In this document: positions 17,550 to 56,480 of the stretch, piece by piece | How positions within the stretch are numbered: position 1 is the first letter of the stretch | How the letters are laid out: each line of letters starts with the position of its first letter | IMG/VR virus record: IMGVR_UViG_3300021141_000001 | DNA from: a virus | DNA: 64,000 bases | Strand: one strand, 5' to 3' | Translations under genes and position numbers: made by a program | Notes under the pieces: model-generated | Databases searched by the model: none | The model's input: only the letters and a program-made list of their open reading frames with translations | What the model was told of the DNA's origin: nothing

Positions 17550-17833
17550 TAGTTGTTTGCCTCCATCGTAGCACTTAGTCCAGCACTTCTGAGTTTATCT
17601 TTCATAGTTGCTATTGTTTCAATATCTCCGTATTTAACATCACACTTTCCATTGTAGTGAACAATATGAGCGCATTGAGTAGCTTGTTCGGTTTCATGCT
17701 TACATATCTTCATAAGACAAGTAATAACCCACTCAAATGTATTGTGATCATCATTGTGTAAAACCAGTTTGTATGGTTTAGATAAAATTTCTTCTACTTT
17801 AGAAGATGTTTTCTTTTTTGTAATTGTTGCCAT
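17549..17833 (-). CDS. clpS: ATP-dependent Clp protease adaptor ClpS
   Basis: YKLVLHNDDHNTFEWVI...AHIVHYNGKCDV. Confidence 0.9.
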   Translation of the reverse strand: MATITKKKTSSKVEEILSKPYKLVLHNDDHNTFEWVITCLMKICKHETEQATQCAHIVHYNGKCDVKYGDIETIATMKDKLRSAGLSATMEANN

Positions 17834-25724: not shown

Positions 25725-26819
25725 TTATGCTTCTGTTGAAACCTCAAATTCAGAATAAACTGTTTGTAACATTCTAAGTGATACTTGGTAAGGATCACAG
25801 TTAGAAGCTGGTCTTCTATCTTCAAAGTAGCCTTTTCCTTCAACAATTGCTTGTGCTGGAATTCTGATAGATGTGTCTCTTGTAGAGAAGCCGTAACTGA
25901 AATCATTGATACTTGATGTTTCGTGAGCACCAGTTAATCTTTGGTCGTTATGTAATCCGTAAACCGCAATGTGTTCTCTTTGATACTTTTCTAATTTAGA
26001 CATAGTTTCTTTAATGATGTCTAATCCGCCTTCTTCTCTCATTTCTTTAGTAGAGAAGTTAACATGACAACCTGTTCCGTTCCAGTCGCCTTTTAGTGGT
26101 TTAGGATGTAAAGAAACTTTAACATTATATTTTTCAGCAACTCTTTGTAACAAATAACGAGAAACCCATAATTGGTCAGAACCTTCTAAAGCAGTAACTG
26201 GTCCAATTTGATATTCCCATTGTCCTAAAAGAACTTCAGCATTAATACCGGAAATATCTAAACCAATTTCCATACACATATTCATATGTTCTTCAACAAT
26301 GTCTCTACCAACTACATTATCAGATCCGATACCACAGTAGTAGTCACCTTGAGGTCTTGGTGTTGAATTTGGATCCAAAGTAAATCCTAATGGAATACCT
26401 TCACCAATGCCAAATGGAATCATTGGTTTGTGTGTAAGAGTGTATTCTTGTTCCCAGCCAAACCAAGGAAGTTCTAATTTATCACCTGAATTGATACCCA
26501 ATTCATTAACTTTTTCAGCTAATGTTCTTCTGTTGTTTGTTTCGTGTTGTGTTCCGTCTGGGTTAAGAACTTCACAGAAAACTAATTTGTTTAATCCTTT
26601 TCTAAATGGATCGTATGTTACAAATACGGGTTTTAATAAACAGTCTGTGTTTTTACCTTTACCTGATTGTGCTTGTAACGTTGAACTTCCGTCAAATGAC
26701 CATATTGAATAGGCGGAAGGATTCATTGAATTAATTTCTGAAGCGATTTTAGTTTTACTTCTAAGTTGTTGAGGGTTTGAACCATCAAGCCAAATGTACT
26801 CTAGTTTGATATTACTCAT
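25725..26819 (-). CDS. glnII: Glutamine synthetase type II
   Basis: LEYIWLDG, WSFDGSST, GINAEV..GQWEYQIGP, GDWNGTGCH, RLTGAHET, YFEDRRPASN. Confidence 0.95.
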   Translation of the reverse strand: MSNIKLEYIWLDGSNPQQLRSKTKIASEINSMNPSAYSIWSFDGSSTLQAQSGKGKNTDCLLKPVFVTYDPFRKGLNKLVFCEVLNPDGTQHETNNRRTLAEKVNELGINSGDKLELPWFGWEQEYTLTHKPMIPFGIGEGIPLGFTLDPNSTPRPQGDYYCGIGSDNVVGRDIVEEHMNMCMEIGLDISGINAEVLLGQWEYQIGPVTALEGSDQLWVSRYLLQRVAEKYNVKVSLHPKPLKGDWNGTGCHVNFSTKEMREEGGLDIIKETMSKLEKYQREHIAVYGLHNDQRLTGAHETSSINDFSYGFSTRDTSIRIPAQAIVEGKGYFEDRRPASNCDPYQVSLRMLQTVYSEFEVSTEA

Positions 26820-27207: not shown

Positions 27208-27551
27208 TGATTATTTTATTTTACCTAATATCTATTTTATTTGCTTTTAACGAGGTTTATTATGTCTTTAATAAAACTAGATTAGATATTAGTATTAAGT
27301 CTTTAGATGTTAAGTCTTTTAGTAGATTTGATATCTTACATTATGTCTTCAGACTAATGTTTTGGGTTTGGATGATTATTGGTATTTGGTCATCTCAATC
27401 AAGTTTGTTTATATTTTTAACACTTTTACATTTACTTAGATTTCCATTCTACCATATAAGTAGAAAACTTTATATTATATGGGATAATATTTTACCAAGT
27501 ATTTCTATAATTTTTATATTAATTATACTTATTTATAAGATTAAAGGTTAA
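27204..27551 (+). CDS. Small multi-pass membrane protein
   Basis: Three to four hydrophobic segments. Confidence 0.6.
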   Translation: MMIILFYLISILFAFNEVYYVFNKTRLDISIKSLDVKSFSRFDILHYVFRLMFWVWMIIGIWSSQSSLFIFLTLLHLLRFPFYHISRKLYIIWDNILPSISIIFILIILIYKIKG

Positions 27552-28068
27552 ATTTCTTTAGATGTTGTTCAGTTATGATGATAAATTCATAACCTTTCAT
27601 ATTACACCAGTTAATCATAGTCTCCCATTTGTTCTTATTCTTGTAAGCCATTTTAAGATCATACTCAAAATTTTTCAACTTCTTCATTCCATTCTCAGGA
27701 ACGACTAGGTTGCCTTCATTTAAGTCTTGAACCATCTTATACTCTTTGAATGGTTTAACCTCTACAACGACTTGTTTAAGTACTCCTTCAGAGTTTCTCA
27801 TCTCATAATAGAAGTCAGGATAATAACAATGTTCTTTTACTTTAGTATCACCATTATCAAAGTGAGTCATTTGATAAGGTATTCTCATACACTCAGCACC
27901 CCATTTAGTGATAGTTTTGTTATTATCTAACCAAGTCATTATCTTCTTCTCCCAAGAACTTCTATAATATACGCCCCCTTGTGTATTCAATTTAATTACT
28001 TTGTCTTTATACTTTGGTATATAGTTACCTTGATTGTAGTTAGCATTATTTGGTTTTGAATTTAACAT
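27541..28068 (-). CDS. gp4: Head completion nuclease (gp4-like, TnsA-type)
   Basis: YRSSWE, YYPDFY, VEVKP, NKNKW, F.IITE. Confidence 0.88.
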   Translation of the reverse strand: MLNSKPNNANYNQGNYIPKYKDKVIKLNTQGGVYYRSSWEKKIMTWLDNNKTITKWGAECMRIPYQMTHFDNGDTKVKEHCYYPDFYYEMRNSEGVLKQVVVEVKPFKEYKMVQDLNEGNLVVPENGMKKLKNFEYDLKMAYKNKNKWETMINWCNMKGYEFIIITEQHLKKFNL

Positions 28069-28840: not shown

Positions 28841-29317
28841 ATGAGACATTTAAGAAAATTTGAAGAACTTGATTATTCTACATATATGAGTGCTGCTGAT
28901 AAAATGGCTGGATATGGTCAAGTTAAGAAAGCAGAAGAAGTTAAATCACATGCTAAAAATATGGCTATGATGCTTATCAAAAATATGGAGTTTGATATTT
29001 TAGTTGGTAATGTTAAAGAATTTCCAATGGCAAAATTTCATACCGCTAGAATATTTAAATCAGGAACAGCTTGGACTCTTCAAGTTATGTTCGAATCTAA
29101 TGGTGGTTATACACATAGTGTGATGTCCAAGGCTACACCTGAAGGTGAAATTAGTTGGCAAGAAGGTAATAAATTTATGAATAGAAAATCTACAATTAAG
29201 TTTAATCAACTTATTGAACAACTTTGTCTTTTTCAACCAGATTTTGTTGGATACTTAAAAGAGTATAACTTAAATTCTGGAGATCTTAAATTAATACAAA
29301 GAACTTATTATTTATAA
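28841..29317 (+). CDS. Hypothetical protein with capsid-targeting-like leader
   Basis: Starts MRHLRKFEEL; late promoter. Confidence 0.6.
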   Translation: MRHLRKFEELDYSTYMSAADKMAGYGQVKKAEEVKSHAKNMAMMLIKNMEFDILVGNVKEFPMAKFHTARIFKSGTAWTLQVMFESNGGYTHSVMSKATPEGEISWQEGNKFMNRKSTIKFNQLIEQLCLFQPDFVGYLKEYNLNSGDLKLIQRTYYL

Positions 29318-29406
29318 TCTATAAAAAACCTACTGACACCAGTAGGTTTTACTCTTTTTGGAGGGACTTTAGATTTTTAATATATAAACGAAATACTTAT
29401 TAATAA

Positions 29407-31119
29407 ATGGCATCATATAATCAATTTACCGCAGGTTCAGGTCAAACAAATTTCGCCTACACCAACAGTGCTGTTGAGAATAAAGGACTTTTTAATAGAA
29501 TTTTAAGAGGTTTATCATCATATGGTATGAACTATGATGATATGATTGTTAGAAATCAAGTGGGTATTGGTATTAACGAAGATCCATATGCGGCTAGAGG
29601 TAACTCAATGTATGACTTCTTCTCTCAAAGAGCCGTAGCTTCTGTCTTAAATAGAAAATCAATTCCTTACTTAGATAAAGCTTATGGTGATAAAAGAAGA
29701 ATTTTAAGAGAATATTCAATTAAAGATGAAATTAGAGACTTTATTAGTTCATTAGCTGATGAAAGTATTGTTTATAATGATGAAAGAGATTTCTGTTCTC
29801 CTAAGCCTTTATCAAATGATTATTCACAAGAGATTAAAGATAAGTATCAAGAATATTTTGAAAAGATTTATAATAAGTTTGGATTCTCAGATAGTATTAC
29901 TGCCTGGAATATGATGAAAGACTTTTTAATTGATGGTTATTTAGCATTAGAAATTATCTATGATGATAAGAAAAAGAATATTATTGGTTTTAACAGATTA
30001 AGACCAGATACTTTAGTTCCAGCATTTGAACCATCCATTGGTCATTTATGGATTCAGTTTCCTGAAGATCCTCAATTGAGAAGAATCTTCTTAGACTCTC
30101 AGTTAGTTTATATTTCTTATTCATCTCAAAATGATTATTCAGAAACATCTTATGTAGAAGGTTTAATTAAACCTTATAACCAATTAAAGATTCTTGAGCA
30201 AACAAGAGTAATGTTTAACATTATTAATGCTACAGTTTATCAAAAGTTTACTATTCCTATTAAAGGTTTATCAAGACAAAGAGCTGAAGAACAAATTGGT
30301 CAATTAATCAATGATTATTCAGAAGAAGTTGAATGGGATGATTCATTAGGTACATTAACTATCAATGGGGCTAAACACTTACCTTATAATAAACAAATTT
30401 GGTTCCCTGAAGGAGATGCTGGTACACCAGCTATGGAATTAGTTTCACCTGAAGGACATAACTTAAATGAGTCGGATATGTTGACTTGGTTCTACAATGC
30501 CCTAAAAAGAGCTTCTAAGATTCCTTTCCAACGTTTTGATAAAGAAAATGGTGGTGGTAACTTAATCAATGACTCGGCTGATATGACGAGAGATGAGATT
30601 AAATTCTACAACTTTATTAATAGATTAAGAGCTAACTTCAAAGAACTTATTGTTAAGCCTTTAAAACTACAAATGTTAATTGAGTTTCCTGAGTTGAAAG
30701 AAGATGAGATTCTTATGAATCAAATTGATATTAATTTTAACTCGAATCAAGTATTTGAAGAATGGAAGAAATTAAATAACTTGGCTAAGAAAGCAGAAAT
30801 ATTTGGTACTTTAGTTGGAATTATGAATGGTGAAAAACCTTACTTCCACGTTGAGTATTTAATTGATAATGTATTTAAATTGACTCCAGAAGAAAAAGCC
30901 GAAAATCAAAAATACTGGGCTAAAGATGCTCTCGGTGTTGCTGGTGGTGGTGCGGCTGCCGCTGGTGCTGAAGGTGCTCCTGCTGAAGGTGCTCCTGCTG
31001 AAGGTGGTGAGGCTCCAGCTGAGGGTGGTGAAGCCGCTCCTGAGGCACAAGCCGCTCCTGAGGCACAAGCCGCTCCTGAAACTCCTCCTGCTGAAGGTGG
31101 TGGTGAATTTGAATTCTAA
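29407..31119 (+). CDS. gp20: Portal protein (gp20-like) with acidic Ala/Pro tail
   Basis: F.IDG, IKPYNQLKILE, L..ASKIP..R, TRDEIKF..FI.RLR..F. Confidence 0.92.
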   Translation: MASYNQFTAGSGQTNFAYTNSAVENKGLFNRILRGLSSYGMNYDDMIVRNQVGIGINEDPYAARGNSMYDFFSQRAVASVLNRKSIPYLDKAYGDKRRILREYSIKDEIRDFISSLADESIVYNDERDFCSPKPLSNDYSQEIKDKYQEYFEKIYNKFGFSDSITAWNMMKDFLIDGYLALEIIYDDKKKNIIGFNRLRPDTLVPAFEPSIGHLWIQFPEDPQLRRIFLDSQLVYISYSSQNDYSETSYVEGLIKPYNQLKILEQTRVMFNIINATVYQKFTIPIKGLSRQRAEEQIGQLINDYSEEVEWDDSLGTLTINGAKHLPYNKQIWFPEGDAGTPAMELVSPEGHNLNESDMLTWFYNALKRASKIPFQRFDKENGGGNLINDSADMTRDEIKFYNFINRLRANFKELIVKPLKLQMLIEFPELKEDEILMNQIDINFNSNQVFEEWKKLNNLAKKAEIFGTLVGIMNGEKPYFHVEYLIDNVFKLTPEEKAENQKYWAKDALGVAGGGAAAAGAEGAPAEGAPAEGGEAPAEGGEAAPEAQAAPEAQAAPETPPAEGGGEFEF

Positions 31120-31613: not shown

Positions 31614-33494
31614 TTACAATATTGTAAAATCTATCTGTTTTCTTTCTAAGTCTACTGATTTAACCACAACTTTAAGAGGATCGCCTAGTCTTATTTTATC
31701 ACCACTTTCACTTGTTATAGTGTAATTAGTTGTATCAGCTGACCATTTACCTTCAAGAGATTGATATCTAACCATTCCTTCGCATTTACTTTCAATCAAT
31801 TCAACATACATACCCCAGTCAGTTACGCCTGAAACGATACCATCAAATACTTTTCCAATCTTATCTAAAAGATATTCAGCTTGTTTGTATTTAATAGAAT
31901 CTCTTTGAGCCTTAGCAGCAACTAACTCTCTAGCAGAACACCATTTAGCTTGTTCTTCAATCTTACCAGGATTACCTTGAGTTTTCTTATCTAAGAAATC
32001 AAGTAATATTCTGTGTGTGATTAAATCTGGATATCTACGAATCGGTGAAGTAAAGTGAGAATAGTGAGTAAATCCTAAACCATAGTGACCAATGTTCTTA
32101 ATTGTGTAAGTTGCTTTAGACATACATCTAGTTACTAAAGTTTCAATCATATTTTCTTCAGGAGTATCTTTAATTTCTTTTAGTAAATTATTTAGAGTTT
32201 TTTTAATTTCAGTTGAATCATCATATATCTCTATATCATATCCAAAAGTTTTACAAACACCAACTAAAGCATTTAACTTTTCCATATTTGGAGTATCGTG
32301 AACTCTATATACATTTGCCCAACTAGCCTCTGATAAAGTCTTAGCAACTGACTTGTTAGCCAATAACATAAATTCTTCAATTAACTTGTTAGCTTCTTTT
32401 TGTTCTTTGAAATAAACACCAATTGGTTTCTTATTATCTTCGGCTAATTTGAATCTTACTTCAATACCACCCATTTCAATAGAACCTTCTTTAATTCTTT
32501 TCTTTCTAATTTTTCTAGCTAAAGTATCAAGTAATCTAATCTCAGTTGAATAATCACCGTCATTTCCTTCAATGATTTCTTGAGCTTCTTCATAAGCATA
32601 TCTTCTATCAGAGTGAATAACTGTTTTGCCTTGCCAAGTGTTTAATATGTTACCTTCATTATCTAAAGTAAAGATAACTGAGAATGCCAATCTATCTTCG
32701 TGTGGTTTCAATGAACATATACCATTACTTAAACGTTCTGGTAACATTGGAACACATCTATCAACTAAATATACTGATGTAGCTCTTTTGAAAGCCTCAT
32801 CGTCTAATTTAGTTCCTGGTTTAACATAGTGTCCTACGTCGGCAATGTGAACTCCTACTTCAATTTTATTATCACTTATTATGTTAACTGAAAGGGCATC
32901 GTCAAAATCTTTAGCATCAACTGGGTCAATTGTTAAAGTAGTAACACCTCTCATATCTTTACGAGATTTAATTTCTTTTTCTGTAATAACTTCAGGTACT
33001 AAGAAAGATTCATTGATGACATCTTGTGGAAATTCAACAGGTAGTCCATATTCAATCATAATTGAGTTCATTTCCGCGTTGTTATCTCCGGAATTTCCTA
33101 AAACTCTTGTTATTTTTCCTTGTGGTGATTTAGTATCCTCCCACTTTATTAATTCGACTACAACTTTTTGGTCGTGTTCGGCTTTTAATCCGCCTTTAAT
33201 ATAAAAGTCTACTGGAATTTTATTGCTATCTGGAACAACAAATGTAGTTTTCTTCCCAATTTGTACTTTTCCAACAAACTCTGTTTTAAATCTTGAAATA
33301 ACTTCAATAACTTTTCCTTCTAACTTTTTTTCAGCTTTGAATATCTGAACTTTTACTTTATCTAAATGTAATGAGTTAGTCGTGTTTTTCTTGTAAATGA
33401 AGATTTCTTTATCTTCTACTAATAAGGATGCGTTACCACTTGTTGAGAATTCAATCTGTCCTTCGTAAACATCCCCTTCTTTTAATTCTATCAT
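31614..33494 (-). CDS. rnr: Ribonuclease R
   Basis: TIDPVDAKDFDDA, IEEFMLLAN, HFTSPIRRYPDL, C-terminal S1 domain. Confidence 0.93.
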   Translation of the reverse strand: MIELKEGDVYEGQIEFSTSGNASLLVEDKEIFIYKKNTTNSLHLDKVKVQIFKAEKKLEGKVIEVISRFKTEFVGKVQIGKKTTFVVPDSNKIPVDFYIKGGLKAEHDQKVVVELIKWEDTKSPQGKITRVLGNSGDNNAEMNSIMIEYGLPVEFPQDVINESFLVPEVITEKEIKSRKDMRGVTTLTIDPVDAKDFDDALSVNIISDNKIEVGVHIADVGHYVKPGTKLDDEAFKRATSVYLVDRCVPMLPERLSNGICSLKPHEDRLAFSVIFTLDNEGNILNTWQGKTVIHSDRRYAYEEAQEIIEGNDGDYSTEIRLLDTLARKIRKKRIKEGSIEMGGIEVRFKLAEDNKKPIGVYFKEQKEANKLIEEFMLLANKSVAKTLSEASWANVYRVHDTPNMEKLNALVGVCKTFGYDIEIYDDSTEIKKTLNNLLKEIKDTPEENMIETLVTRCMSKATYTIKNIGHYGLGFTHYSHFTSPIRRYPDLITHRILLDFLDKKTQGNPGKIEEQAKWCSARELVAAKAQRDSIKYKQAEYLLDKIGKVFDGIVSGVTDWGMYVELIESKCEGMVRYQSLEGKWSADTTNYTITSESGDKIRLGDPLKVVVKSVDLERKQIDFTIL

Positions 33495-33507
33495 ATAGGT
33501 ATTCTAT

Positions 33508-33903
33508 TTAAGAAACCTCATTTTGTTTATCTCTTTTTGATATATTATCTACACCATACTTCTCTATAAGTGTATTTTTCATCTTACTAAGTACCTTTTT
33601 ATTCTGTATTGGATAGTCAACTCCAAAGTTTTTTCTTAATGTTTCTTTTCTTTTTGATTCAGAACATTTTCTACAATAATATTCTCCAAAGTTGTTATCA
33701 TATTTAACATAGTTTTTGAATATTACTTCTTTTTCGATTCCACAACCGTCACACTTACATTTTATTTTATAATGTGATCCTTTTGACATTAATTCAATTG
33801 GTATTTTAATAATCTCTCCAATTGCTACATCATATCCTAAATCATCATAGTACTGATAATTCGACTCATTAATTTTTATCTCTATCTCTCTTGTAAGGAT
33901 CAT
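33508..33903 (-). CDS. Zinc-binding protein of homing-endonuclease-associated type (no nuclease seen)
   Basis: CKCDGCG, YCRKC, K.T..K..GVD repeats. Confidence 0.55.
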   Translation of the reverse strand: MILTREIEIKINESNYQYYDDLGYDVAIGEIIKIPIELMSKGSHYKIKCKCDGCGIEKEVIFKNYVKYDNNFGEYYCRKCSESKRKETLRKNFGVDYPIQNKKVLSKMKNTLIEKYGVDNISKRDKQNEVS

Positions 33904-34074
33904 AAAAAACCGCTCAATTTCTTTTATTTATTAAAAATCACTTCTCTCCTCCATGGTTTTATACATGTTAAACCCAGCCTGAAACCTATCACTACTATAA
34001 AAAATCCACGTTGAAAAAAAGACGGTTTCTTACTGATTATATATACTCTATATTTTAAAAAATAATAAACTTAA

Positions 34075-36198
34075 ATGAAACCAGTATTAATTATAGAAAA
34101 TTCACAAAACTCTCTTATTAGAGAGAATAATGGTTCTACTAAGAAGGATTATATTTTAGGTGGTACGTTCACAGAGTTCGGTGTTAAAAACCGTAATGAG
34201 AGAATTTACACTGCTGATAAATTTCTTCCAGCTTTAGATGAATTAAATGAAAGAATGAGCAGTTTAGGCGTTGTTTACGGTGAGTTTGATCACCCAGATG
34301 TTTTTGACACATCTCTTTCTAGAGCATCACACATTATCACAAAAGCTAATTATGTAAAAGAATCAAATTTAGTTAATGGTGAAATTAGATTACTAAACAC
34401 TTATTGGGGTAAAGAAGCAAAGGCATTAGTTGATGACGGATGTCCTGTTTTCGTTTCTTCAAGAGCCGCTGGTATCACTGAATCAGATGGTACTGTTTCA
34501 TTGAAAAAATTATTTACATATGATATCGTTGCTGATCCAGGTTTTGCTTCTGCTAAAATGTCGGTTAAGAATATCAACGAATCATTAGGATATAATGAAA
34601 ACTCTAACTTTAGGATATATGAAATGTCCGATGAGTCCAAAATAAATCAACTATTTGATATGAACAAAAATGAATTTGTTACAAAGCAACAATTAACTGA
34701 ATATTCTCAGTATTTAGTTAAAGAACTAGCTTCTACAAAGAAAGAAGTTAAAGGTGCTCTTACTAAAGGTAATTTATCTCCAAAGAAAATGGAGCAACTT
34801 TTAGAGTACTATGAAGAGTTAAATTCTACTAATTCTCAAGTTGTTAAATATTTAGATTATTTGGCTGAAAAAGTTCAAATTATGGTTAATGAAAACAAGT
34901 CGTTAAAGGAAACTACTGACAAACTTATTAAACATAATGACTATTTAGCTGAAAATTTAGAAAAAGCTGTTAACTACTCTGAATACTTAGCTGAAAACTT
35001 AGACAAAAATATTGAGTATTCTGAATACTTAGCTGAAAATCTTGATAAGAATATTTCTTATTCAGAATATATCGCTGAAAATCTTGATAAGAACATTTCT
35101 TATTCTGAATACTTAGCTGAAAACTTAGACAAAAATATTGAGTACTCTGAGTACTTAGCTGAAAATCTTGATAAGAATATTGCTTATTCAGAATATATCG
35201 CTGAAAACTTAGACAAAAATATTTCTTACGCAGAATATATTGCTGAGCACGTTGATAATTCAATTGCTTATTCTGAATACTTAGCTGAACACGTTGAAGG
35301 TAACATCGCTTACTCTGAATACATTGCTGAACATTTAGATGATAATATTGCTTACTCTGAATACATTGCTGAAAATCTTGATAAATCAATTAACTACCAA
35401 GGTTTAATCGTTGAAAAATTAAATTCAAGAAAATTAAATGAATCAATGAGTGAAGAAGAAGAAGCTTTCCCATCATTACAAGCGGCAGGTTTTGAAAATA
35501 CTCAAGAAGATGAGAATGAAGAAGAAGAAAATGAAGAAGAAGCATACAATGGTATTGCTTCAGCTCATGAAGAAGAAGCATATAATAAAGAAGAAGAAGA
35601 TGAAGACTGTGGTCCATCTGCTACTGAAGAAGAAAATAATGATGAAGAAGCTCATGATTACAAAGTAACTGGTAACAGTGATTCTGAATTATCTGAGTCA
35701 ATCAACAAATTAATAGAAGAAGCTAAAAAACGTAAAGTTTCTGAATCAACTGACTTGAATTTCTTAAAATTCTTAAACAAGTCACAAGTAGATAGTTACT
35801 ACGCTTTGTCTGATGAAGACCAAGAGGCTGTTAAATTTCACATAAACGAAAGAAATTACTTCACATCTAAAGATGTGTTAAGCCTAATCGCAGAAGCGCT
35901 ATCATCAAAGAATGAATCTCTTGAAGAAAGAGTAATCAGATTAATGCCTGAAAACACTAAGGCTATCTGGAGTCAAATGAATGAATCTGCTAAAAAATCT
36001 ATCTTATCACAAGCTAGACTTTACCCAGCTGAAGTTTTAATGACTGAATCACAAGTTGAGCATTTCTGGTTAACTAGAAAGCTTAAAACAAACGAGTCTG
36101 TAACTAAAAAGTTAGTAGCTCATGAAAGTTTAATACAAGAAGATAAACTTTCTGATAATGACGTTACTGCGATTATGGAAAGATTCAAAAACATTTAA
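34075..36198 (+). CDS. gp21: Prohead protease (gp21-like) fused to a scaffold/core domain
   Basis: KNRNERIY, GEFDHP, VSSRAAG, TYDIVADPGF, followed by a long coiled-coil and acidic region. Confidence 0.88.
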   Translation: MKPVLIIENSQNSLIRENNGSTKKDYILGGTFTEFGVKNRNERIYTADKFLPALDELNERMSSLGVVYGEFDHPDVFDTSLSRASHIITKANYVKESNLVNGEIRLLNTYWGKEAKALVDDGCPVFVSSRAAGITESDGTVSLKKLFTYDIVADPGFASAKMSVKNINESLGYNENSNFRIYEMSDESKINQLFDMNKNEFVTKQQLTEYSQYLVKELASTKKEVKGALTKGNLSPKKMEQLLEYYEELNSTNSQVVKYLDYLAEKVQIMVNENKSLKETTDKLIKHNDYLAENLEKAVNYSEYLAENLDKNIEYSEYLAENLDKNISYSEYIAENLDKNISYSEYLAENLDKNIEYSEYLAENLDKNIAYSEYIAENLDKNISYAEYIAEHVDNSIAYSEYLAEHVEGNIAYSEYIAEHLDDNIAYSEYIAENLDKSINYQGLIVEKLNSRKLNESMSEEEEAFPSLQAAGFENTQEDENEEEENEEEAYNGIASAHEEEAYNKEEEDEDCGPSATEEENNDEEAHDYKVTGNSDSELSESINKLIEEAKKRKVSESTDLNFLKFLNKSQVDSYYALSDEDQEAVKFHINERNYFTSKDVLSLIAEALSSKNESLEERVIRLMPENTKAIWSQMNESAKKSILSQARLYPAEVLMTESQVEHFWLTRKLKTNESVTKKLVAHESLIQEDKLSDNDVTAIMERFKNI
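34975..35394 (+). repeat. 42-bp/14-aa coding tandem repeat, 10 copies
   Basis: YSEY(L/I)AENLDKNI(E/S/A) units. Confidence 0.92.
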
Positions 36199-36279
36199 TC
36201 TATAAAAAATCCACACTTGAAATTATTGAAATTTTGAAGGGTAATATATAGATAAACACAAAAAAAAATTAAAAAAATT

Positions 36280-37983
36280 ATGTCACACATTAGAATAGAC
36301 AAATCAAAAGCAGTTAAGAAATGGGCTCCAGTTTTGGAAAACATGGGTGTAACTGAAGATAGAGTAGAATGGATGTCAGAAATGGCTGAGTATCACTCAA
36401 TCAATGAAAATGCGTATGTAAACGCATCAAACGTAGCAGGTATGGGAGCTGTATTGAATCCAGTTGTTGGTTCATTAGCAGGTAATACATTAGCTACTTA
36501 CGCAAACGGTGGTGGTGTTGCTGGTTCTGGAGACGTAGGTCAAAACTTACTTCCAGTAGCTATGAAAATTGCTGCTCAAACAATCGGTTTAGACTTAGTA
36601 GCTGTTAAACCAACTCCAGGTCCAAAAATCGATTTATTATACATCGATTTCCAATACGATGATGTTAATAACTTAACAGATGGTTATGAAAAGCCACAAG
36701 TTTTCAAATTATATGCTAGTAACATTACTGACATCACTGCTCAAATCAGACTTGACGTTGCTGGTGCTGGTCCTTTAACTGCTTTACAAGAAACAACTGG
36801 TGGATTACAAGGTGGTAGATTATTCTACGGTATCACTGCTTCATCAGCATTTGTAAGTAACACTTTACCAGCATCTAAAACAAATATAGTTGAATTCTTA
36901 GGTTTCTCTCGTATCGATGGTTACCCAATGTTTAGAGTATTCAGACAAGCAAATACATCAGGTAACATTTCTGTTCCTCATACATTTGTTGCTGCTGACA
37001 ACACATTTGCTGCTTCAGGTAGTATGCTTTCTCAAATTTTAGGTTTAGCTGGTATCGTTCCTAACTCAGGAACAAAAGAAGTTCAATTAATCTCTGCTTT
37101 AGAAGATCATATCCCAGGATTTACATCAAACTGGACTGCTGCTTCAGGTGGTGCTTTAGGTAACTATCCAATGGATCGTGCTTCTGATGATAACAGTTAT
37201 GCTGGTGTTATCGGACCAAAAATCTCTTCTAAAACTGTAGCAGTTGGTACTATCGAAGTATCTTCAGCTCTTAGAAGAACTGAAATCGAAGATATCAAAG
37301 CTAACACAGGTATGGATATCGTTCAAAAAATGGAGTCTATCCTTGTTAACGAATTGTCTCAAACAATTTCTAAACAAATCGTTGCTAAAATCTTCGAAAT
37401 GGGTGCTCTTAATGCTGTTAACGCTCCTGCTGCGCCAGCTGGTTCTGCTAACTCTGGTGGTACTATCTTCGACTTGAACACTGCTTATGCTGCTACTACT
37501 TATGTTGGTGGTGAAACTACTCACGCTGTTCAACGTAAGTTAATCACTAAGATTGCTCACGCTTCTAACTACATTGCTACTGAAGGTCGTGTAGGTCCTG
37601 CTCAATACCTTATCACAAACGGAGGTCTTGCTGCTGCTTTACAAGATATCGCTGGTTACACAATTAACCCAGTTAAATCTAAATTAAACGGACAAGGTCA
37701 ATTATACCCTGTAGGTTCAATCGGAGACATCTCTATCTATGTAGATCCATATATGAGATATAACGATAACAGAATCGTGTTAGGTCGTAAGAACAACCCT
37801 GACCAACCAGGTATCATTTTCGTACCTTACTTAATGGCTCAGTCTATCTCAGTTATCTCTGAAGCTACATTCGCTCCAAGAATGTTGTTACGTTCAAGAT
37901 ACGCTGTAACTGAAGTTGGTTGGTTCCCACAAAAACAATATATGACTATTACAGTTACTGACGCTGCTCAGTTATTAAACTAA
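36280..37983 (+). CDS. gp23: Major capsid protein (gp23-like)
   Basis: KKWAPVLE, A..IG.DLV.VKP..GP, YVDPY, FVPY, F.PR....SRY; strongly biased codon usage. Confidence 0.92.
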   Translation: MSHIRIDKSKAVKKWAPVLENMGVTEDRVEWMSEMAEYHSINENAYVNASNVAGMGAVLNPVVGSLAGNTLATYANGGGVAGSGDVGQNLLPVAMKIAAQTIGLDLVAVKPTPGPKIDLLYIDFQYDDVNNLTDGYEKPQVFKLYASNITDITAQIRLDVAGAGPLTALQETTGGLQGGRLFYGITASSAFVSNTLPASKTNIVEFLGFSRIDGYPMFRVFRQANTSGNISVPHTFVAADNTFAASGSMLSQILGLAGIVPNSGTKEVQLISALEDHIPGFTSNWTAASGGALGNYPMDRASDDNSYAGVIGPKISSKTVAVGTIEVSSALRRTEIEDIKANTGMDIVQKMESILVNELSQTISKQIVAKIFEMGALNAVNAPAAPAGSANSGGTIFDLNTAYAATTYVGGETTHAVQRKLITKIAHASNYIATEGRVGPAQYLITNGGLAAALQDIAGYTINPVKSKLNGQGQLYPVGSIGDISIYVDPYMRYNDNRIVLGRKNNPDQPGIIFVPYLMAQSISVISEATFAPRMLLRSRYAVTEVGWFPQKQYMTITVTDAAQLLN

Positions 37984-38007
37984 TCAATAGTCTTATTGAT
38001 ATTATTG

Positions 38008-38034
38008 AAAAAAGACCCTTTATGGGTCTTTTTT
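38008..38034 (+). terminator. Intrinsic terminator after the capsid gene
   Basis: AAAAAAGACCC-tttat-GGGTCTTTTTT. Confidence 0.8.
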
Positions 38035-38067
38035 CTTTTTAAAGAATTTGTAATTAATATATACACT

Positions 38068-38457
38068 ATGATAAAGAATTTTAATTTATTTAACGAATCT
38101 AAAAAAGACAAATTTCCTAATATTCAAAAATTAGAAATAGAAGGATTTGTTGTTTATGTTGGTAAAGATGCTAAATCTAATGATCATTTGACATTTAATG
38201 TTGCTGATAAAGAAGATATTTGGTTCCATGTTAAAGGTGTTCCAGGTAGTCACGTTGTTATTCGTGTAAGAGAAAATTTACCTACAGAAACTGTTATTAA
38301 ATCCGCGGCACAATTGGCTAAAAAGAATAGTAAAGGATCTAAAGAATCTAGTGTAACTGTTGTTTATTGTCAAAGAAGATTCGTTAAGAAAGAATCAGGT
38401 ATGAATGATGGTCAAGTTAAAGTAGATTATACAAATTCATATCAAATTGTAGTTTAA
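38068..38457 (+). CDS. Stand-alone NFACT-R (RqcH/FbpA RNA-binding) domain protein
   Basis: VGKDAKSND.LT, DIWFHVKGVPGSHV, AAQLA, V.Y...R.VKK; leader MIKNFNLFNES. Confidence 0.85.
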   Translation: MIKNFNLFNESKKDKFPNIQKLEIEGFVVYVGKDAKSNDHLTFNVADKEDIWFHVKGVPGSHVVIRVRENLPTETVIKSAAQLAKKNSKGSKESSVTVVYCQRRFVKKESGMNDGQVKVDYTNSYQIVV

Positions 38458-38492
38458 TATTTAATATATAACATAATAAAATAAATTAAAAA

Positions 38493-39848
38493 ATGGCAGA
38501 TACTAATGAACCTGTAAGAGTTAAATTTTCCGAAGAACTTCATGATTTATTAAAAGTTTTAGAAGATGAGAATAGTTATATCGCATTTGAAATGCTTTGG
38601 CTAAATGAACCTAATTCTAAATATCATAATGGTTTAGGAATTACTGATGTTAATATATCTAAGACAAAATCTTGTTTAGATGTTACATCTAGAGGTAAAG
38701 TACACCCTATGAAAATAGAAAATTTTATTAAATTTTACTTTAAAAATTATTTTCAAACTGCTGATATTCAAGATTTTATTGAACAATATGATATATTATC
38801 AGGTGGTGGTTCGGTTGAAAGTATTGCTGTTAATAGAATTACACCAGAACCTTTTACTTATAATCCTAAAGACGTTAGAAGTACATTTATTTCATTAGTT
38901 ACTAAGACATATCCTCACGGACACGAAGAAGAAGTAATGGCTTTTATGCCTAAATTGGATAAAGATATTGTAGGTAACTATTATAAGATTATTGGCGAGA
39001 ATTCAACAACAATGTTTACGTCTCACTTAGATACTGCTGATAGAAAACAAGGCATTACTAAACTTCTTTCTAAGAAAGATGATAAAGGTGATGAAATTAT
39101 CTATACAGATGGTTCTACTATATTAGGTGCTGATGATAAATCAGGTGTTGCTGTTATGCTTTATATGATGGCTCATAATGTACCAGGTCTTTATTACTTC
39201 TTTATGGGTGAAGAAAGAGGTGGTATTGGTTCAGGTTTATTATCTTCAGTGTATGAACAAGTTGAATATCTTAAAAATATTAAGAGATGTGTTTCTTTTG
39301 ATAGAAGAGATGTTTGTTCAGTTATCACTTCTCAATTAGGCAGAACTTGTTGTTCTGATCAATTTGGAACTGCTTTGGCTAAACAATATAATTCACACGG
39401 TCTTAATTTATCATTAGATCCAGGTGGTATATACACAGATTCTGCTTCATTTATTGACCAAATTCCTGAATGTACTAACATTTCAGTTGGTTATTATAGT
39501 GAACATACTGGTAAAGAAAGACAAAATATCAACTATTTAGAAAGACTTGCTAAAGCTAGTGTAAAAGTAAATTGGGATTCATTACCAACTACTAGAAAGA
39601 TAGGAATTGATGAAGAAACTATTAGAAAATATGGTAAGTTAATTAGTGATATAAAAGCAACACCATTTGGTATTGATGTTAAAATAGCATCTGATAGAGC
39701 TACTACATTTATTCAATGTGATTTAGAAGAAGGTTATATTGATGAAACATATGAGGCTTTAACAACATTACAATTCTTATTAAACAAACACAAAGTAAGT
39801 CAAAAGGTTTATTTTGACGCAGAATACATAAAAATAGATTTACTATAA
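38493..39848 (+). CDS. M28/M20-like zinc peptidase, paralogue 1
   Basis: SHLDT, GADDKSG, GEERG, FDRR, EHT. Confidence 0.8.
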   Translation: MADTNEPVRVKFSEELHDLLKVLEDENSYIAFEMLWLNEPNSKYHNGLGITDVNISKTKSCLDVTSRGKVHPMKIENFIKFYFKNYFQTADIQDFIEQYDILSGGGSVESIAVNRITPEPFTYNPKDVRSTFISLVTKTYPHGHEEEVMAFMPKLDKDIVGNYYKIIGENSTTMFTSHLDTADRKQGITKLLSKKDDKGDEIIYTDGSTILGADDKSGVAVMLYMMAHNVPGLYYFFMGEERGGIGSGLLSSVYEQVEYLKNIKRCVSFDRRDVCSVITSQLGRTCCSDQFGTALAKQYNSHGLNLSLDPGGIYTDSASFIDQIPECTNISVGYYSEHTGKERQNINYLERLAKASVKVNWDSLPTTRKIGIDEETIRKYGKLISDIKATPFGIDVKIASDRATTFIQCDLEEGYIDETYEALTTLQFLLNKHKVSQKVYFDAEYIKIDLL

Positions 39849-40294
39849 TGAAACTTAAAAAATTTAATCAATTATTTGAACGTGAGGGTTTTGATGATAT
39901 CGATGGATATGATTATGAAGATGATTACGATTATTCAAGAGAAGATGAATATAAAGGTGATGATGATGATTCAGATGATGATATGTCACATCTTTGTTAT
40001 CTTTTAAGATCCATGTTTAATAATAGTAATGTAGATGTTAATGTTGAAAATAGTGGATTGGATTTATCTATTACAGCTCAATTTGCTAGAAGAGAATCAC
40101 TTAGTGATATTGTTAAAGTATTTGAAATTGTTAGAAAAATTAAAAAAGACGTTTTAGCTCAATATTCTTCTTCTTATGAAATATGGGAAACTAAAACAGG
40201 TACGCCTATGATTACATTTGAATTTATGTTAGAAGACGATGATGATAAAGATGGTGTAGTTACTGATGATAAGAACGATGATTATCCTTGGTAA
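39848..40294 (+). CDS. Acidic protein with capsid-targeting-like leader
   Basis: Starts MKLKKFNQLFE. Confidence 0.6.
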   Translation: MKLKKFNQLFEREGFDDIDGYDYEDDYDYSREDEYKGDDDDSDDDMSHLCYLLRSMFNNSNVDVNVENSGLDLSITAQFARRESLSDIVKVFEIVRKIKKDVLAQYSSSYEIWETKTGTPMITFEFMLEDDDDKDGVVTDDKNDDYPW

Positions 40295-40307
40295 TTTTTA
40301 AAATTTC

Positions 40308-40346
40308 TAAACTTTTTGCTATTTTAGAATATTATATATATATTTG
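40308..40346 (+). promoter_or_regulatory. Composite promoter upstream of the tmRNA
   Basis: TTTG (40315) - 20 nt - TATATTTG (40339); also TAAAC-N17-TATTAT and TATATATA. Confidence 0.65.
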
Positions 40347-40363
40347 TAGAATATAACACACTT

Positions 40364-40743
40364 GGGGATGTTTTAGAATTGATTTGCGGAATGGTGGTGA
40401 TTATGTCAGGTATCGGTTGGTTAAGTATCCGATTAATAAATTAAGTAACAAATTTGTAAACGGCAACGTTAATGAAGTAGCAAGCAATGAAGATTTAGTA
40501 TTTGCGCTACAAAACAACATGATCTTGGTAGAAGATCTAGCAACTGTCTAACAACAGTTACTATCAAAAAATTCTCCAACTTGTATCACACAAGAATAAA
40601 ATGGTGAAACGGTTTTTTGTTACTTGTTAGAGTTTCTCAAAAAAAGTAAATAGTTTGTAAGTTTAGAAAAATTTACTAAGCCTGTGAATGAATAATTATT
40701 AACAACTGAAAAAGACACGTTGGGCAGTACAACGTCATCTCCA
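40364..40743 (+). ncRNA. ssrA: tmRNA
   Basis: Acceptor stem GGGGATG/CATCTCC-A with G3:U wobble; T-arm ACGTTG-GGCAGTA-CAACGT after GAC; pk1 stem ATCGG/CCGAT; tag ORF 40462-40551; followed by a terminator. Confidence 0.88.
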
Positions 40744-40747
40744 CAAG

Positions 40748-40773
40748 AACAAAGACCAGTAATGGTCTTTTGT
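40748..40773 (+). terminator. Intrinsic terminator after the tmRNA
   Basis: AAAGACCA-gtaa-TGGTCTTTT. Confidence 0.7.
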
Positions 40774-40818
40774 TATTTTAAATAGGTAAACTTTATTCCT
40801 TTCGTTAATATAATAAGT

Positions 40819-41322
40819 ATGATTGATAAATTTGAAGGTCGTTATAGATTCTTATCCAACTTCTACCCTTGTACAATAGAACATCAGGGTATTACTTACC
40901 CATCTGTTGAGAACTTTTATGTTGCTATGAAAGTTAATGACCAACAATTAATTAATGGTAAATATTACACACCAGGTGACTTTCGTGAAATGATTGCTAG
41001 AATTTCTAATCCTGCTGAAGTTAAGAAGATTGGTTCTAAAATAAAATTAAGAACTGGTTGGGATGAAAAGAAATTAGAAGTAATGAACTGGGCTGTTCGC
41101 CAAAAGTTCAAAGATGAAACTTTATCTGAAATGTTATTATCTACTGGTGGCCAAGAGTTAATTGAAGGTAACTGGTGGAAAGATTATTTCTGGGGAGTTT
41201 GTAATGGTAAAGGTGATAATAATCTTGGTAAAATTTTAATGACTGTTCGTGAAGAAATTTCTTTACAAAATCAAAAACCTTCAATCGAAGATATAATAAA
41301 AGACAAAAATAAATTAAATTAA
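40819..41322 (+). CDS. NADAR family protein
   Basis: FLSNFY, YPSVENFY.A.K, W, QKF, LLSTG..ELIE, D.FWG, N.LGKILM..R. Confidence 0.9.
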   Translation: MIDKFEGRYRFLSNFYPCTIEHQGITYPSVENFYVAMKVNDQQLINGKYYTPGDFREMIARISNPAEVKKIGSKIKLRTGWDEKKLEVMNWAVRQKFKDETLSEMLLSTGGQELIEGNWWKDYFWGVCNGKGDNNLGKILMTVREEISLQNQKPSIEDIIKDKNKLN

Positions 41323-43890: not shown

Positions 43891-45231
43891 ATGAGTAAAT
43901 TAGTAACGTTAAACGGAAATAATGATCAAGAACTTCTAAGTTCTATCTTTGACAATGAAATTGTTGTATTTGAAGATATTCAAGGATCAAAAATATGGGT
44001 TAATTGGGATGGTAAAGAATTTACTATTAAACCAAAGTCAATGAGTAGTGAAAAACTTAATCTTGTTGATTTGGCTATTCAAAACTATTATAATCCAGGT
44101 ATTAAATATTTAGAATCATTGGATGTAAGAGTTAAATCATTGTTGAATAAAAAATGGTGGTTTTGTTTTGAGTACTTTCCAGATGAACAACCTGCTAATA
44201 TTGGATATGATAGAGTTCCTAAAAATCATTTAGTTTTAACTGCTATTAATAAAGGTGGTAAGTATGACTTTAGTGTTGAAGAGTTAGATGAGTATGCTAG
44301 ATTATTTGATGTTGATATGTTACCGATTGTTTTTCAAGGTAAACTAACTGAGAGAATGATTGAAGCTATTAAATACTTTATTAATACAAGTGAAGAAGAT
44401 TTAGAGTATGTATTTGGAGAAAAGTCATTTTCATTTTTCTTCTACAGAATATTAAATCCAAGTTCTACTAACTCGTTCTTAATGAAAGATGAAGATTATC
44501 AATCAAATCTTGAGAAACTTATTGTAAGAACTAAAAGTGGTGATATTTCATTTGAAATATTAAATCCTTTATACAGAAGAATAAGTGATAGTAACTCAAC
44601 AGAATTTGTTGAAATTTATACACTTATATTAGTTAACTTCTTAAACTTCTGTCAATCATTTAACTTAGATGAAATTAAATTAAAAGGTGAAAGAAGAGAT
44701 GAAGTTTATATTTATCTAATGTCTAAACTATTCAATGTTTATGTTTCTGAAGTTAAACAAGATTTATTAGACTTTGATTTTGTAGTTCCTGAATTCTTTG
44801 ATAAAGAAAAGTTCAAAATCAATACAGAATTAATTCCTAATAAATTGACCAAAGATTATATTAAAGAATCTGATAAGTTAGAATATATCTTCAAAGTTAT
44901 TCTTGGTTCATTTAACAAGAAAAGAAAGAAAGCAATTGGTGTATTTACTGATAATACAGTTATATTATTTAACACATTTGTCAATGATATTAATGTTTAT
45001 ATTGAAAAGTATCTAAATAAAGTACACGAGGTTGAATTAACAAGAGCTGGTTTGCTTGACTTTGGTGATTTCTTTGAGATTCAATATGATCAAGATGGTG
45101 AAGGTGATGTTTATCCTGATGTTTACTCTGAGTTTGAAAAAGGAACACCTGAAGAAAAGAAGAAAAAAGGTAAAGGTGGTAAAGGTTTACCCGTACCAGA
45201 AGAAGGACCGTCTAAAACTCCTACTAAGTAA
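43891..45231 (+). CDS. RNA-ligase-fold protein with degenerate active site
   Basis: EDIQGS in place of EKxDG; FEY, LPIVFQG, EKLIVR resemble Rnl2-type motifs. Confidence 0.45.
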   Translation: MSKLVTLNGNNDQELLSSIFDNEIVVFEDIQGSKIWVNWDGKEFTIKPKSMSSEKLNLVDLAIQNYYNPGIKYLESLDVRVKSLLNKKWWFCFEYFPDEQPANIGYDRVPKNHLVLTAINKGGKYDFSVEELDEYARLFDVDMLPIVFQGKLTERMIEAIKYFINTSEEDLEYVFGEKSFSFFFYRILNPSSTNSFLMKDEDYQSNLEKLIVRTKSGDISFEILNPLYRRISDSNSTEFVEIYTLILVNFLNFCQSFNLDEIKLKGERRDEVYIYLMSKLFNVYVSEVKQDLLDFDFVVPEFFDKEKFKINTELIPNKLTKDYIKESDKLEYIFKVILGSFNKKRKKAIGVFTDNTVILFNTFVNDINVYIEKYLNKVHEVELTRAGLLDFGDFFEIQYDQDGEGDVYPDVYSEFEKGTPEEKKKKGKGGKGLPVPEEGPSKTPTK

Positions 45232-45443
45232 TGAACTCAATTGATATTAATATGAGAAGTGTTCAAGTTGAAACTAAAACAAGAGCGCTTAGATCTACTT
45301 GGACTCGTGAATTGGCAACTGATTTAGATTCATATCATAATATTGATATTGAAAAGGAACTTTCTCATCTTTTGAAAGAAGAGCTTCGTAAACAACGAGC
45401 TTCTAGTAGAAAAAAATCAATCAATAAAATCTTCCAAAATTAA
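45231..45443 (+). CDS. 70-aa gp23-core fragment protein
   Basis: VETKTRALRSTWTRELATDLDSYHNIDIEKELSHLL resembles T4 gp23 IEAKSRQLKAAYSIELAQDLRAVHGMDADAELSGIL. Confidence 0.7.
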   Translation: MNSIDINMRSVQVETKTRALRSTWTRELATDLDSYHNIDIEKELSHLLKEELRKQRASSRKKSINKIFQN

Positions 45444-46910: not shown

Positions 46911-47450
46911 ATGACAGGATTGGAACACAAGGATGCCTCATTTATTCTACTATCATCTACACGTTTAGATGATATGATATCTATTTTATATGCCAAAGAA
47001 TATCAAGTATTACCCATTAAAGGTTACTACAAGGGTCAATATGAAGACTCTGTAATGGCTTATGGTAAAGTAGATAATGATACTTTAAGAAAAGATGTTC
47101 TTTTTCTTTTAAATCATTTCCATGAAGAATGTGCTATTATTAAATACACTGAAGAAACTAATGCTAAAAAGATATTTAAAGATGGATCTGAGATACCTAT
47201 GGGTATTGTAATGTATAATACAGATTCTGATAATATGTCTTATTTACATAATGGTACATCATTCTCATTTGTTGAATCTAAAAGATATTGGAGACCAACT
47301 AAAAAAGAAGATTTCAGAGTTGGTATGCTAGTTGAATATTTCAATAATAATAAGTGGTTTGAAAAGCTTGTTGAGAATCCTAATGATGAATATGAAAAAC
47401 TTTATAAACTACTTATAAAGTATGATAAAGTTAGAGTTCCTTCTAAATAA
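46911..47450 (+). CDS. Hypothetical protein
   Basis: 179 aa; late promoter. Confidence 0.65.
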   Translation: MTGLEHKDASFILLSSTRLDDMISILYAKEYQVLPIKGYYKGQYEDSVMAYGKVDNDTLRKDVLFLLNHFHEECAIIKYTEETNAKKIFKDGSEIPMGIVMYNTDSDNMSYLHNGTSFSFVESKRYWRPTKKEDFRVGMLVEYFNNNKWFEKLVENPNDEYEKLYKLLIKYDKVRVPSK

Positions 47451-56456: not shown

Positions 56457-56480
56457 TATAATAAATATAATTATACATTC

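Follow-up and report, generated by a model that had tools for sequence, protein, structure and literature searches.

A structurally conserved tmRNA missed by ARAGORN and Rfam, with RNase R, NFACT-R and ClpS homologues, in a freshwater megaphage

The tmRNA gene and its SmpB

The stretch under study, called the window here, comprises 64,000 nucleotides (nt) of the virus record IMGVR_UViG_3300021141_000001, read as one strand, and all coordinates refer to the whole window. It consists of AT-rich phage DNA with a T4-type head module and carries a one-piece transfer-messenger RNA (tmRNA) gene of 380 nt (40364-40743, + strand), whose last base is the discriminator A, together with genes for the core enzyme of RNase R, a stand-alone NFACT-R protein and a homologue of the adaptor ClpS. 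A first-pass annotation had described these four as a dispersed ribosome-rescue kit, by which the phage takes over translation quality control. All four are real, with ClpS lying 14 kb outside the span in which the kit had been placed. The trans-translation core of the proposal is founded; that the genes act as one kit is conjecture. We consider it probable, with considerable room for doubt, that the phage has its own trans-translation system and that RNase R, NFACT-R and ClpS are real, separate acquisitions and not a demonstrated single module.

The window is part of a freshwater megaphage. All (100%) of the sampled words of its DNA recur in metagenomes from lakes and freshwater, which stem from at least 11 studies, and the sole GenBank phages with nucleotide similarity, which are also the nearest published genomes, are LR745206 and LR756502 (634 and 642 kb, uncultured). 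The Mahaphage clade takes in genomes of more than 634 kb and has Bacteroidetes as predicted hosts (Al-Shayeb et al., 2020; PMC7162821). As stand-ins for the window's own genome we used G001, a near-identical fragment of 85 kb, and G002, a 476-kb relative that is 97% complete. G002, LR745206 and LR756502 are the complete close relatives; with LR756504, LR756501 and Lak-C1 they make up the six complete megaphage genomes that were compared. In addition, 21 related loci were retrieved via the NFACT-R protein, and the Pfam scan covered 70 open reading frames (ORFs) of the window.

ARAGORN called no tmRNA in the window, Rfam gave nothing at the tmRNA site either at the gathering score or at E ≤ 10, and the Rfam model alpha_tmRNA had no match in the window at E ≤ 10. 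Using nhmmer, the 380-nt element was located in 17 related loci with 72-100% identity, and also in LR745206 and LR756502. The most distant copies, which are syntenic homologues in the loci L020 and L023, are both called tmRNA by ARAGORN and are scored by RF00023 at 57.4 and 53.1 bits, respectively (gathering score 47). Thus the element of the window belongs, in diverged form, to a lineage of phage tmRNAs that can be recognised as such. For LR745206 and LR756502 neither ARAGORN nor Rfam gave a tmRNA call, and the sub-threshold Rfam matches in these two genomes (inspected loci L030, L031 and L035) turned out to be tRNA genes.

In the related loci conservation begins at the first G of the element and ends at the discriminator base. 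CCA is not encoded by the gene, the bases after the discriminator being CAA. Upstream lies a promoter-like element (40315-40346, +), read from the sequence and conserved in relatives, that consists of TTTG, 20 nt and then TATATTTG. It fits TTTG-N19-21-TAnnTTTG, which we take to be the Bacteroidota promoter consensus. The terminator scan placed a hairpin 3' of the tmRNA (40751-40770, +), and relatives have different terminator hairpins at the same spot. Because the element is inverted and sits at a different place in L015 and L016, it behaves as a unit of its own. The block of tmRNA, NADAR and Dam is inverted relative to the window in L015, L016 and L018 (~8700-11600). For L018, in which the syntenic block is present, no tmRNA match was obtained inside the locus; the element may lie just outside it or be more diverged.

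Consensus folding of 15 sequences with RNAalifold gave the topology of a tmRNA, i.e., an acceptor stem, a long P2 helix, the stem of pseudoknot 1 (PK1), hairpins in and after the tag region and a T-arm. Across the 72 consensus pairs 96.7% of the cells hold standard pairs, compared to 88.2% when the 3' letters were shuffled and 35-47% when the partners were slid by 1-3 columns. Compensatory change was detected in 27 of the 72 pairs, against 13.1 ± 1.9 in the shuffles (0 of 500 reached 27) and 2-8 in the slid controls. Covariation is present in every helix of the tmRNA, including the acceptor stem and the T-arm.

The 5' strand of the acceptor stem, GGGGAUG (40364-40370, +), pairs with CAUCUCC (40736-40742). 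All seven pairs are 100% paired in the 15 sequences and the discriminator is unpaired; pair 5 changes from A-U to G-C in three sequences, and G3:U70 is invariant in all 15. G3:U70 is the alanine identity pair. The T-arm (40717-40735, +) is formed by a stem of 6 base pairs (bp), ACGUUG/CAACGU, with compensatory changes at three pairs, and by the 7-nt loop GGCAGUA. In the P2 helix 8 of 18 pairs are compensatory. Stem 1 of PK1 is 100% paired and its 4-bp stem 2 is 98% paired (2-70% when slid), and PK2-PK4 were seen as hairpins only. The T-loop reads GGCAGUA, GGCGGUA, UGCAAUA or GGCAGUG in the clade of the window and AUCGUUA in the Rfam-positive homologues. Divergence of the tRNA-like elbow, with its GGCAGUA T-loop, is probably the reason why ARAGORN and Rfam miss this tmRNA.

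The tag reading frame (40462-40551, +) begins with the resume codon GGC, runs over 29 codons (GNVNEVASNEDLVFALQNNMILVEDLATV) and ends with TAA, which lies in the loop of a hairpin. In the Rfam alignment of L020 the same GGC is the resume codon, separated by two bases from a preceding UAA (UAA-CC). The length of the tag is 28-29 residues in 15 of 15 homologues, with a shared residue pattern, and the sole change in length is an in-frame deletion of 3 nt. The C-termini across the homologues are ATV, MAV, SMV, AVA or EVA. In 6 of the 15 homologues the stretch from the nearest upstream stop to the resume codon contains no ATG, GTG or TTG.

The tmRNA is apparently transcribed. From a 601-nt stretch, 63% of which is tmRNA, six metatranscriptome runs contain 54-61% of the sampled words. 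RNA contigs (four runs from four studies) fall within 40358-40744, the exceptions being a low-depth upstream piece and one piece beyond 40808. One RNA contig of 376 nt corresponds in its entirety to 40358-40733 with zero mismatches, and in one run the word depth on the tmRNA was 263, compared to 2.4 on its upstream neighbour gene. In two studies contigs end at 40742-40744, and 40754-40795 is not covered; a lack of coverage in other places carries no weight. This pattern is as expected from a stable, discrete and abundant RNA. The signature of the matured, CCA-tailed form would be reads ending in ...CUCCACCA where the genome has CAA.

The first-pass annotation had seen no smpB. This holds for the window, where the SmpB domain is absent from 70 of 70 ORFs (Pfam), and none was found in the 85-kb G001 either; it does not hold for the lineage. 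The search for smpB, which had been proposed as a check, found the gene in all three complete close relatives with 167-177 bits, about 130-150 kb from the tmRNA. As all complete close relatives encode SmpB, its absence is probably confined to the window and does not extend to the phage as a whole. The SmpB of G002 has its C-terminal tail and passes both NCBIfam equivalog cut-offs (TIGR00086, 171 bits versus 119). That the phage lineage has a complete trans-translation core with a structurally intact tmRNA is, as judged from sequence, well founded. tmRNAs and SmpB have already been reported in huge phages, with the tmRNAs called by ARAGORN only (Al-Shayeb et al., 2020; PMC7162821). The 735-kb phage LR756501, which has SmpB, also carries a 344-nt sub-threshold tmRNA candidate of 21 bits (LR756501.1, 718388-718731; L050), which may be another hidden tmRNA.

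Compared to the standard one-piece tmRNA (SsrA, RF00023), the phage tmRNA is alike in the 7-bp acceptor stem, G3:U70, A73, the T-arm abutting the acceptor stem, the long P2, PK1 before the resume codon and the UAA two bases before this codon, and also in the start-less tag frame ending in a hairpin and in a cognate SmpB in the same genomes (here those of the relatives). It differs in the T-loop, which is GGCAGUA and not UUCRANY, in the altered D-loop, in the lack of an encoded CCA and in the heavily base-paired tag region. The tag has 29 residues and ends in ATV, AVA or EVA, whereas the standard tag has about 10 residues and ends in LAA. Unlike the standard tmRNA, the versions of the window, LR745206 and LR756502 fall short of all thresholds of Rfam and ARAGORN.

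RNase R, NFACT-R and ClpS

The gene at 31614-33494 (-) encodes an RNase R core enzyme of 626 amino acids (aa) with the domain order CSD1-CSD2-RNB-S1 (Pfam: RNB 1.7e-110, plus CSD2 and S1). It reaches 648.4 bits with TIGR02063 (equivalog cut-off 597.85), covering positions 63-709 of the 711 model positions and leaving 1-62 unmatched, and its alignment to B. subtilis RNase R (779 residues, PDB 8cdu) spans residues 71-707 of the latter. In the alignment to the B. subtilis enzyme the RNB aspartate cluster (DxxDxxDxDD) is present. The phage protein thus shares the CSD1-CSD2-RNB-S1 core and the aspartate cluster with bacterial RNase R (TIGR02063; E. coli, B. subtilis) and differs from it by the lack of the N-terminal helix-turn-helix (HTH) domain and of the C-terminal K/R-rich domain, its S1 domain ending at residue 625 of 626. 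The HTH domain has been described as the pivot of RNase R during 30S degradation (PMC12320835), and E. coli RNase R's K-rich domain is needed for recruitment to tmRNA-rescued ribosomes (PMC3949413). Because both are missing, the anatomy of the phage enzyme gives no support for the coupling to trans-translation that the first-pass annotation had assumed. The simpler reading is that of a general 3'-5' degrader of structured RNA.

The stand-alone NFACT-R protein has 130 aa (38065-38457, +; PF05670, 1.2e-17, 64.9 bits versus a cut-off of 29.8). Its true start, ATG 38065 (MIKNFNLFNES), was set by orthologue comparison. The listed TTG start at 37996 was rejected, as it reads through the terminator hairpin of the capsid gene (38007-38035, +; terminator scan) and the upstream frame is not conserved in orthologues. 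The gene begins 81 nt after that of the T4-type (gp23-type) major capsid protein (36280-37983, +; PF07068, 5.9e-28) and so does lie right behind it, as had been noticed before. Among solved structures, residues 448-552 of B. subtilis RqcH match best (3.6e-18), followed by CCDC25 (2.6e-10), and identity to the RqcH domain is 40-45% over about 100 residues. About 10 C-terminal residues lie beyond the Pfam match and 7 beyond the last RqcH-aligned residue, and a C-terminal coiled-coil extension is not present. There are 634 metagenome homologues. Among the 120 listed, many are on contigs of hundreds of kilobases, 106 have 127-131 aa, and nine are longer, at 228 aa, owing to an acidic extension joined in frame to the N-terminus. 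In these 228-aa forms (L011, L012, L017 and L019, ~5600-6390; P0007, P0043, P0095) the acidic extension of about 100 residues starts with MKYLLIE or MNKYLLVE, and the usual N-terminal motif (KIMNYKSFNES) is internal.

The phage NFACT-R has a histidine (His54) in the motif DIWFH, aligned to DIWLH of RqcH, and D[IL]WxH is found in 118 of the 120 listed homologues. This conservation points to an enzymatic or RNA-end-binding role. The yeast protein Jlp2, a solo NFACT-R, releases peptides from ribosome-bound peptidyl-tRNA, for which His44 (His41 in CCDC25) is essential, and its authors ask whether other histidine-bearing NFACT-R domains act likewise (bioRxiv 10.1101/2025.09.04.673968). The contexts of NFACT-R given by Burroughs and Aravind are NFACT proteins, ThiI fusions and the eukaryotic solo proteins CCDC25/Jlp2, with none in phages (PMC4075521). 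Since Jlp2 is a release factor and the motif with its histidine recurs in the phage protein, a role in rescue is plausible. A Jlp2-like release activity may be ascribed to it by analogy, tentatively, and we lean slightly against it.

Like Jlp2 and CCDC25, the phage protein is a stand-alone NFACT-R domain with a DIWFH-type histidine and a following PGSH motif. It differs from them in that there is no C-terminal coiled coil and the 130-aa protein ends with the domain, in an extra leader-like N-terminal segment of about 17 residues and in its origin from a viral lineage predicted to infect Bacteroidota; in sequence it is closer to B. subtilis RqcH than to CCDC25. With RqcH (NEMF family) only NFACT-R is shared, and as it has none of the NFACT-N, HhH and coiled-coil/M domains, the phage protein cannot carry out alanine tailing in the manner of RqcH. 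The Fpg/Nei-like DNA glycosylase gene at 62483-63268 (+), with a canonical MPELAE start, was considered as a split NFACT-N and rejected, because its product was matched to the families Fapy glycosylase and H2TH and has MPELAE at its N-terminus. No NFACT-R domain was found in the one Bacteroides control genome searched, which hints that the host may lack RqcH. A PepT/M20-like peptidase homologue (38493-39848, +; weak NCBIfam matches, best TIGR01883 with 2.1e-10) always sits between NFACT-R and the tmRNA and is syntenic in all loci.

An N-terminal motif, M-[KR]-x-[ILV]-[KRN]-x-[FY]..E, recurs in 6 of the 70 window N-termini, compared to 0.04 expected from internal positions (regex), the strict pattern M-[KR]-x-[ILV]-[KRN]-x-[FY] having been chosen after the fact. 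It could be a capsid-targeting or cleavage leader. The proteins that bear it (8284-8844, -; 19463-20125, +; 20195-20806, +; 20799-21197, -; 28841-29317, +; 60004-60519, -) are otherwise unrelated and have no Pfam matches; examples of their N-termini are MKFIKTFES and MRYIKTFES. An all-versus-all comparison of the window N-termini with blastp-short found nothing. That the "capsid leader" is just a translated terminator was rejected, as the regex test shows a real motif. The first-pass claim that NFACT-R carries this leader stands for some orthologues, such as those with MRYLNYFES, MKYLSYFEG and MRYLKYYES, but not for the window copy (MIKNFNLFNES), which fails the strict motif and fits it loosely. 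ClpS, which starts with MATITKKK, has no leader. The capsid-targeting sequence of T4 internal proteins is MKTYQEFIAE and is cut by gp21. The putative leader resembles it in being short, with an M-K/R start, aromatics and a Glu near position 8-10, and in being shared by unrelated proteins of a phage that encodes a T4-type prohead protease. It differs in the sequence of the motif and in the loose fit of the window's NFACT-R.

The ClpS adaptor homologue of 94 aa (17549-17833, -; PF02617, 5.5e-20, 71.4 bits versus a cut-off of 23) stays below the NCBIfam equivalog cut-offs. ClpS is also encoded by LR745206, LR756502, LR756504 and G002. One to three ClpP homologues are present in the complete relatives (G002, 285900-286421 and 440856-441380; LR745206, LR756502, LR756504, Lak-C1), and LR756501 gave no ClpP match. 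A phage ClpA as partner for ClpS was not seen in the complete relatives. Their sole Hsp100 has 710 aa and is ClpB-like without an N-domain, the G002 copy starting at position 146 of the ClpA model; it was rejected as a partner, because there is no N-domain for ClpS to bind. The ClpS of E. coli directs ClpAP away from substrates that carry the ssrA tag.

Next to ClpS lies a HAD_SAK_1 phosphatase gene (17856-18374, -), and directly 3' of the tmRNA lies NADAR (40819-41322, +), which is syntenic in relatives. The genes at 58274-58762 (+) and 59651-60001 (+) show a weak 2H-SAK match below the Pfam cut-off and DUF4326. HAD_SAK_1, NADAR, 2H-SAK and DUF4326 are domains of the RNA-repair or ADP-ribose-processing type and are scattered in the window.

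Head module and further features of the window

Besides the capsid gene, the head module includes the terminase (15285-17432), the portal (29407-31119) and a prohead protease fused to a repeat-rich scaffold (34075-36198, +). The match of the protease domain is weak, with Peptidase_S77 below its cut-off. The scaffold-like part contains more than 12 tandem copies of a YSEYLAENLDKNI-type repeat of 13 residues, followed by an acidic tail. In addition to the intact capsid gene there are two short genes whose products match pieces of gp23, one of 70 aa (45231-45443, +; Pfam positions 132-182, 2.5e-11) and one of 259 aa (47443-48222, -) with a weak match to Pfam positions 185-305.

Other genes of the window encode a glutamine-synthetase-like protein (25725-26819, -), a TnsA-like endonuclease (27541-28068, -) and further peptidase-like proteins, namely a retropepsin-like Zn_protease (PF05618; 55515-55916, +) and a protein with a weak M28 match (56433-57575, +). 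An AT-rich TAATATATA-like motif is found 5-40 nt 5' of many start codons, in about half of the genes (e.g., 36243-36251, 38050-38058 and 29385-29393), and may be a phage promoter. It precedes the portal, protease, capsid, NFACT-R, PepT-like peptidase and ClpS genes and thus shows no specificity for rescue genes.

Co-occurrence, rival explanations and meaning

In about 20 loci the order RNase R, DUF7487, protease, capsid, NFACT-R, PepT-like peptidase, acidic protein, tmRNA, NADAR and Dam is conserved. As these phages are close kin, the shared order in the close clade shows inheritance and not function. SmpB was found in each of the six complete genomes. G002, LR745206 and LR756502 additionally have a tmRNA of the window's family, RNase R, ClpS and a solo NFACT-R, with the RNase R gene of LR756502 about 157 kb from the head genes. 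LR756504 has a tmRNA (Rfam, 65 bits), RNase R (34% identity) and ClpS (41% identity) and no NFACT-R. RNase R, ClpS and NFACT-R are all absent from LR756501, with its sub-threshold tmRNA candidate, and from Lak-C1, whose tmRNA reaches 49 bits in Rfam. The distribution among these genomes is nested, SmpB and tmRNA being the most widespread, followed by RNase R and ClpS and then by the solo NFACT-R, which is limited to the closest clade. Co-occurrence across related phages had been named as a check on the one-kit claim, and a nested, not a joint, distribution goes against it. On the gene content of these genomes, tmRNA and SmpB are the stable core, to which RNase R, ClpS and NFACT-R would have been added later or separately.

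For the phage's own trans-translation system we propose the following course. The tmRNA transcript would arise from the promoter-like element, end at its own terminator and be processed to about 380 nt, and CCA would be added post-transcriptionally, since it is not encoded by the gene. The RNA would be charged with alanine via G3:U70 and A73, bind the SmpB of the phage, whose gene lies far away in the relatives, enter stalled ribosomes and add the 29-residue tag ending in small hydrophobic residues. The core-only RNase R would act as the general RNA degrader described above, and the solo NFACT-R is a candidate for a Jlp2-like enzyme that frees peptides from peptidyl-tRNA on large subunits. Together with ClpS, tmRNA and SmpB, they would form a repertoire that sustains translation and protein turnover in infection.

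Several points weigh against this reading. No tool (ARAGORN, Rfam) recognises the tmRNA of the window directly, its T-loop GGCAGUA departs from the usual UUCRANY and the D-loop is altered as well. The evidence for SmpB comes from relatives and not from the window's own genome, and both the binding of SmpB and the aminoacylation of the tmRNA are assumed. The RNA contigs neither prove the ends of the RNA nor exclude carry-over of DNA. His54 was matched to His44 of Jlp2 and His41 of CCDC25 by the motif and by fitting alignment coordinates of CCDC25, not by a residue-by-residue alignment, and RqcH carries the same histidine without, to our knowledge, being a hydrolase. The separate acquisition of the genes rests on six genomes and no rooted tree.

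In an alternative explanation, tmRNA/SmpB, RNase R, NFACT-R and ClpS form one rescue and clean-up pathway against mRNA- or tRNA-cleaving host defences, with NFACT-R delivered by the capsid. We regard this as unlikely. All parts do occur together in every complete close-clade genome, and RNase R, NFACT-R and tmRNA lie together within a conserved stretch of 9 kb that surrounds the head genes (about 20 loci); domains of the RNA-repair type are close by (HAD_SAK_1 by ClpS, NADAR by the tmRNA and the weak 2H-SAK), Jlp2 shows that a solo NFACT-R can work in rescue, and the N-terminus of the NFACT-R family belongs to the leader-like motif class. However, beyond the close clade the distribution is nested and not joint, RNase R is remote from the head block in LR756502, and the enzyme is without the K-rich domain that E. 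coli RNase R requires in order to be recruited in a tmRNA-dependent manner. ClpS has neither a leader nor a phage ClpA, the sole Hsp100 being ClpB-like without an N-domain, and its E. coli counterpart diverts ClpAP from ssrA-tagged substrates. A link of the genes to host defences would be conjecture. It also appears improbable to us that NFACT-R is a packaged, head-internal nucleic-acid-binding protein similar to the internal proteins of T4, targeted by its leader and cut by the prohead protease, and not a ribosome factor. The constant position of its gene directly after the capsid gene would suit such a protein, as would the conservation of the N-terminal ~10 residues, which in some orthologues match the leader of the six window proteins, the internal position of the motif in the fused 228-aa forms, as for a cleavage site, and the T4-type prohead protease two genes upstream; human CCDC25 is reported to bind DNA via its NFACT-R domain, according to a citing passage in bioRxiv 10.1101/2025.09.04.673968. 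Against this stand the failure of the window copy to match the strict motif, the terminator between the capsid gene and NFACT-R and the catalytic-type histidine in nearly all listed homologues.

The 380-nt element might not be a working tmRNA at all. It could instead encode a small protein, or be a decoy or degraded copy with no effect other than titrating SmpB or alanyl-tRNA synthetase of the host; we judge this very improbable. A 55-codon ORF with a TTG start (40384-40551) is open in the window, the standard detectors fail and the T-loop is non-canonical, and for mycobacteriophage DS6A a tmRNA without a coding sequence has been described as an inhibitor of the tmRNA of its host. The long ORF, however, lacks conservation: a 1-nt indel 5' of the tag shifts its frame in most relatives, and a start codon is missing in 6 of 15 homologues. 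Compensatory changes keep all helices, including the acceptor stem and the T-arm, the tag frame retains its length and amino-acid pattern, and the lineage retains an intact SmpB with its C-terminal tail. We therefore prefer a phage-owned trans-translation system with separately acquired companions. A bolder version of it would give the phage two rescue routes of its own, namely an orthogonal pair of tmRNA and SmpB, in which the elbow is re-designed and the long tag leads to a fate chosen by the phage, and a Jlp2-like NFACT-R that hydrolyses peptidyl-tRNA on split large subunits in a host phylum possibly without RqcH, possibly packaged via its leader and delivered with the DNA. We consider this combination quite unlikely; if it were true, NFACT-R domains with the histidine would constitute a general class of peptide-release factors carried by viruses.

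The idea of a kit finds its limit in an RNase R without the domain that couples the enzyme to trans-translation. Phage tmRNA and SmpB have already been published; the tmRNA family described here, however, goes unseen by ARAGORN and Rfam, also in two published genomes of 634-642 kb. Because the family escapes both tools, LR745206 and LR756502 probably appear to have an orphan SmpB, and this annotation gap is closable by a model built from the tmRNA alignment. The altered elbow and the 29-residue tag, together with an SmpB of its own, make this tmRNA a natural variant for the study of T-loop and tag requirements. The solo NFACT-R with its Jlp2-type histidine is small and abundant in lake metagenomes and offers a test case for the question whether such domains form a class of peptide-release factors.

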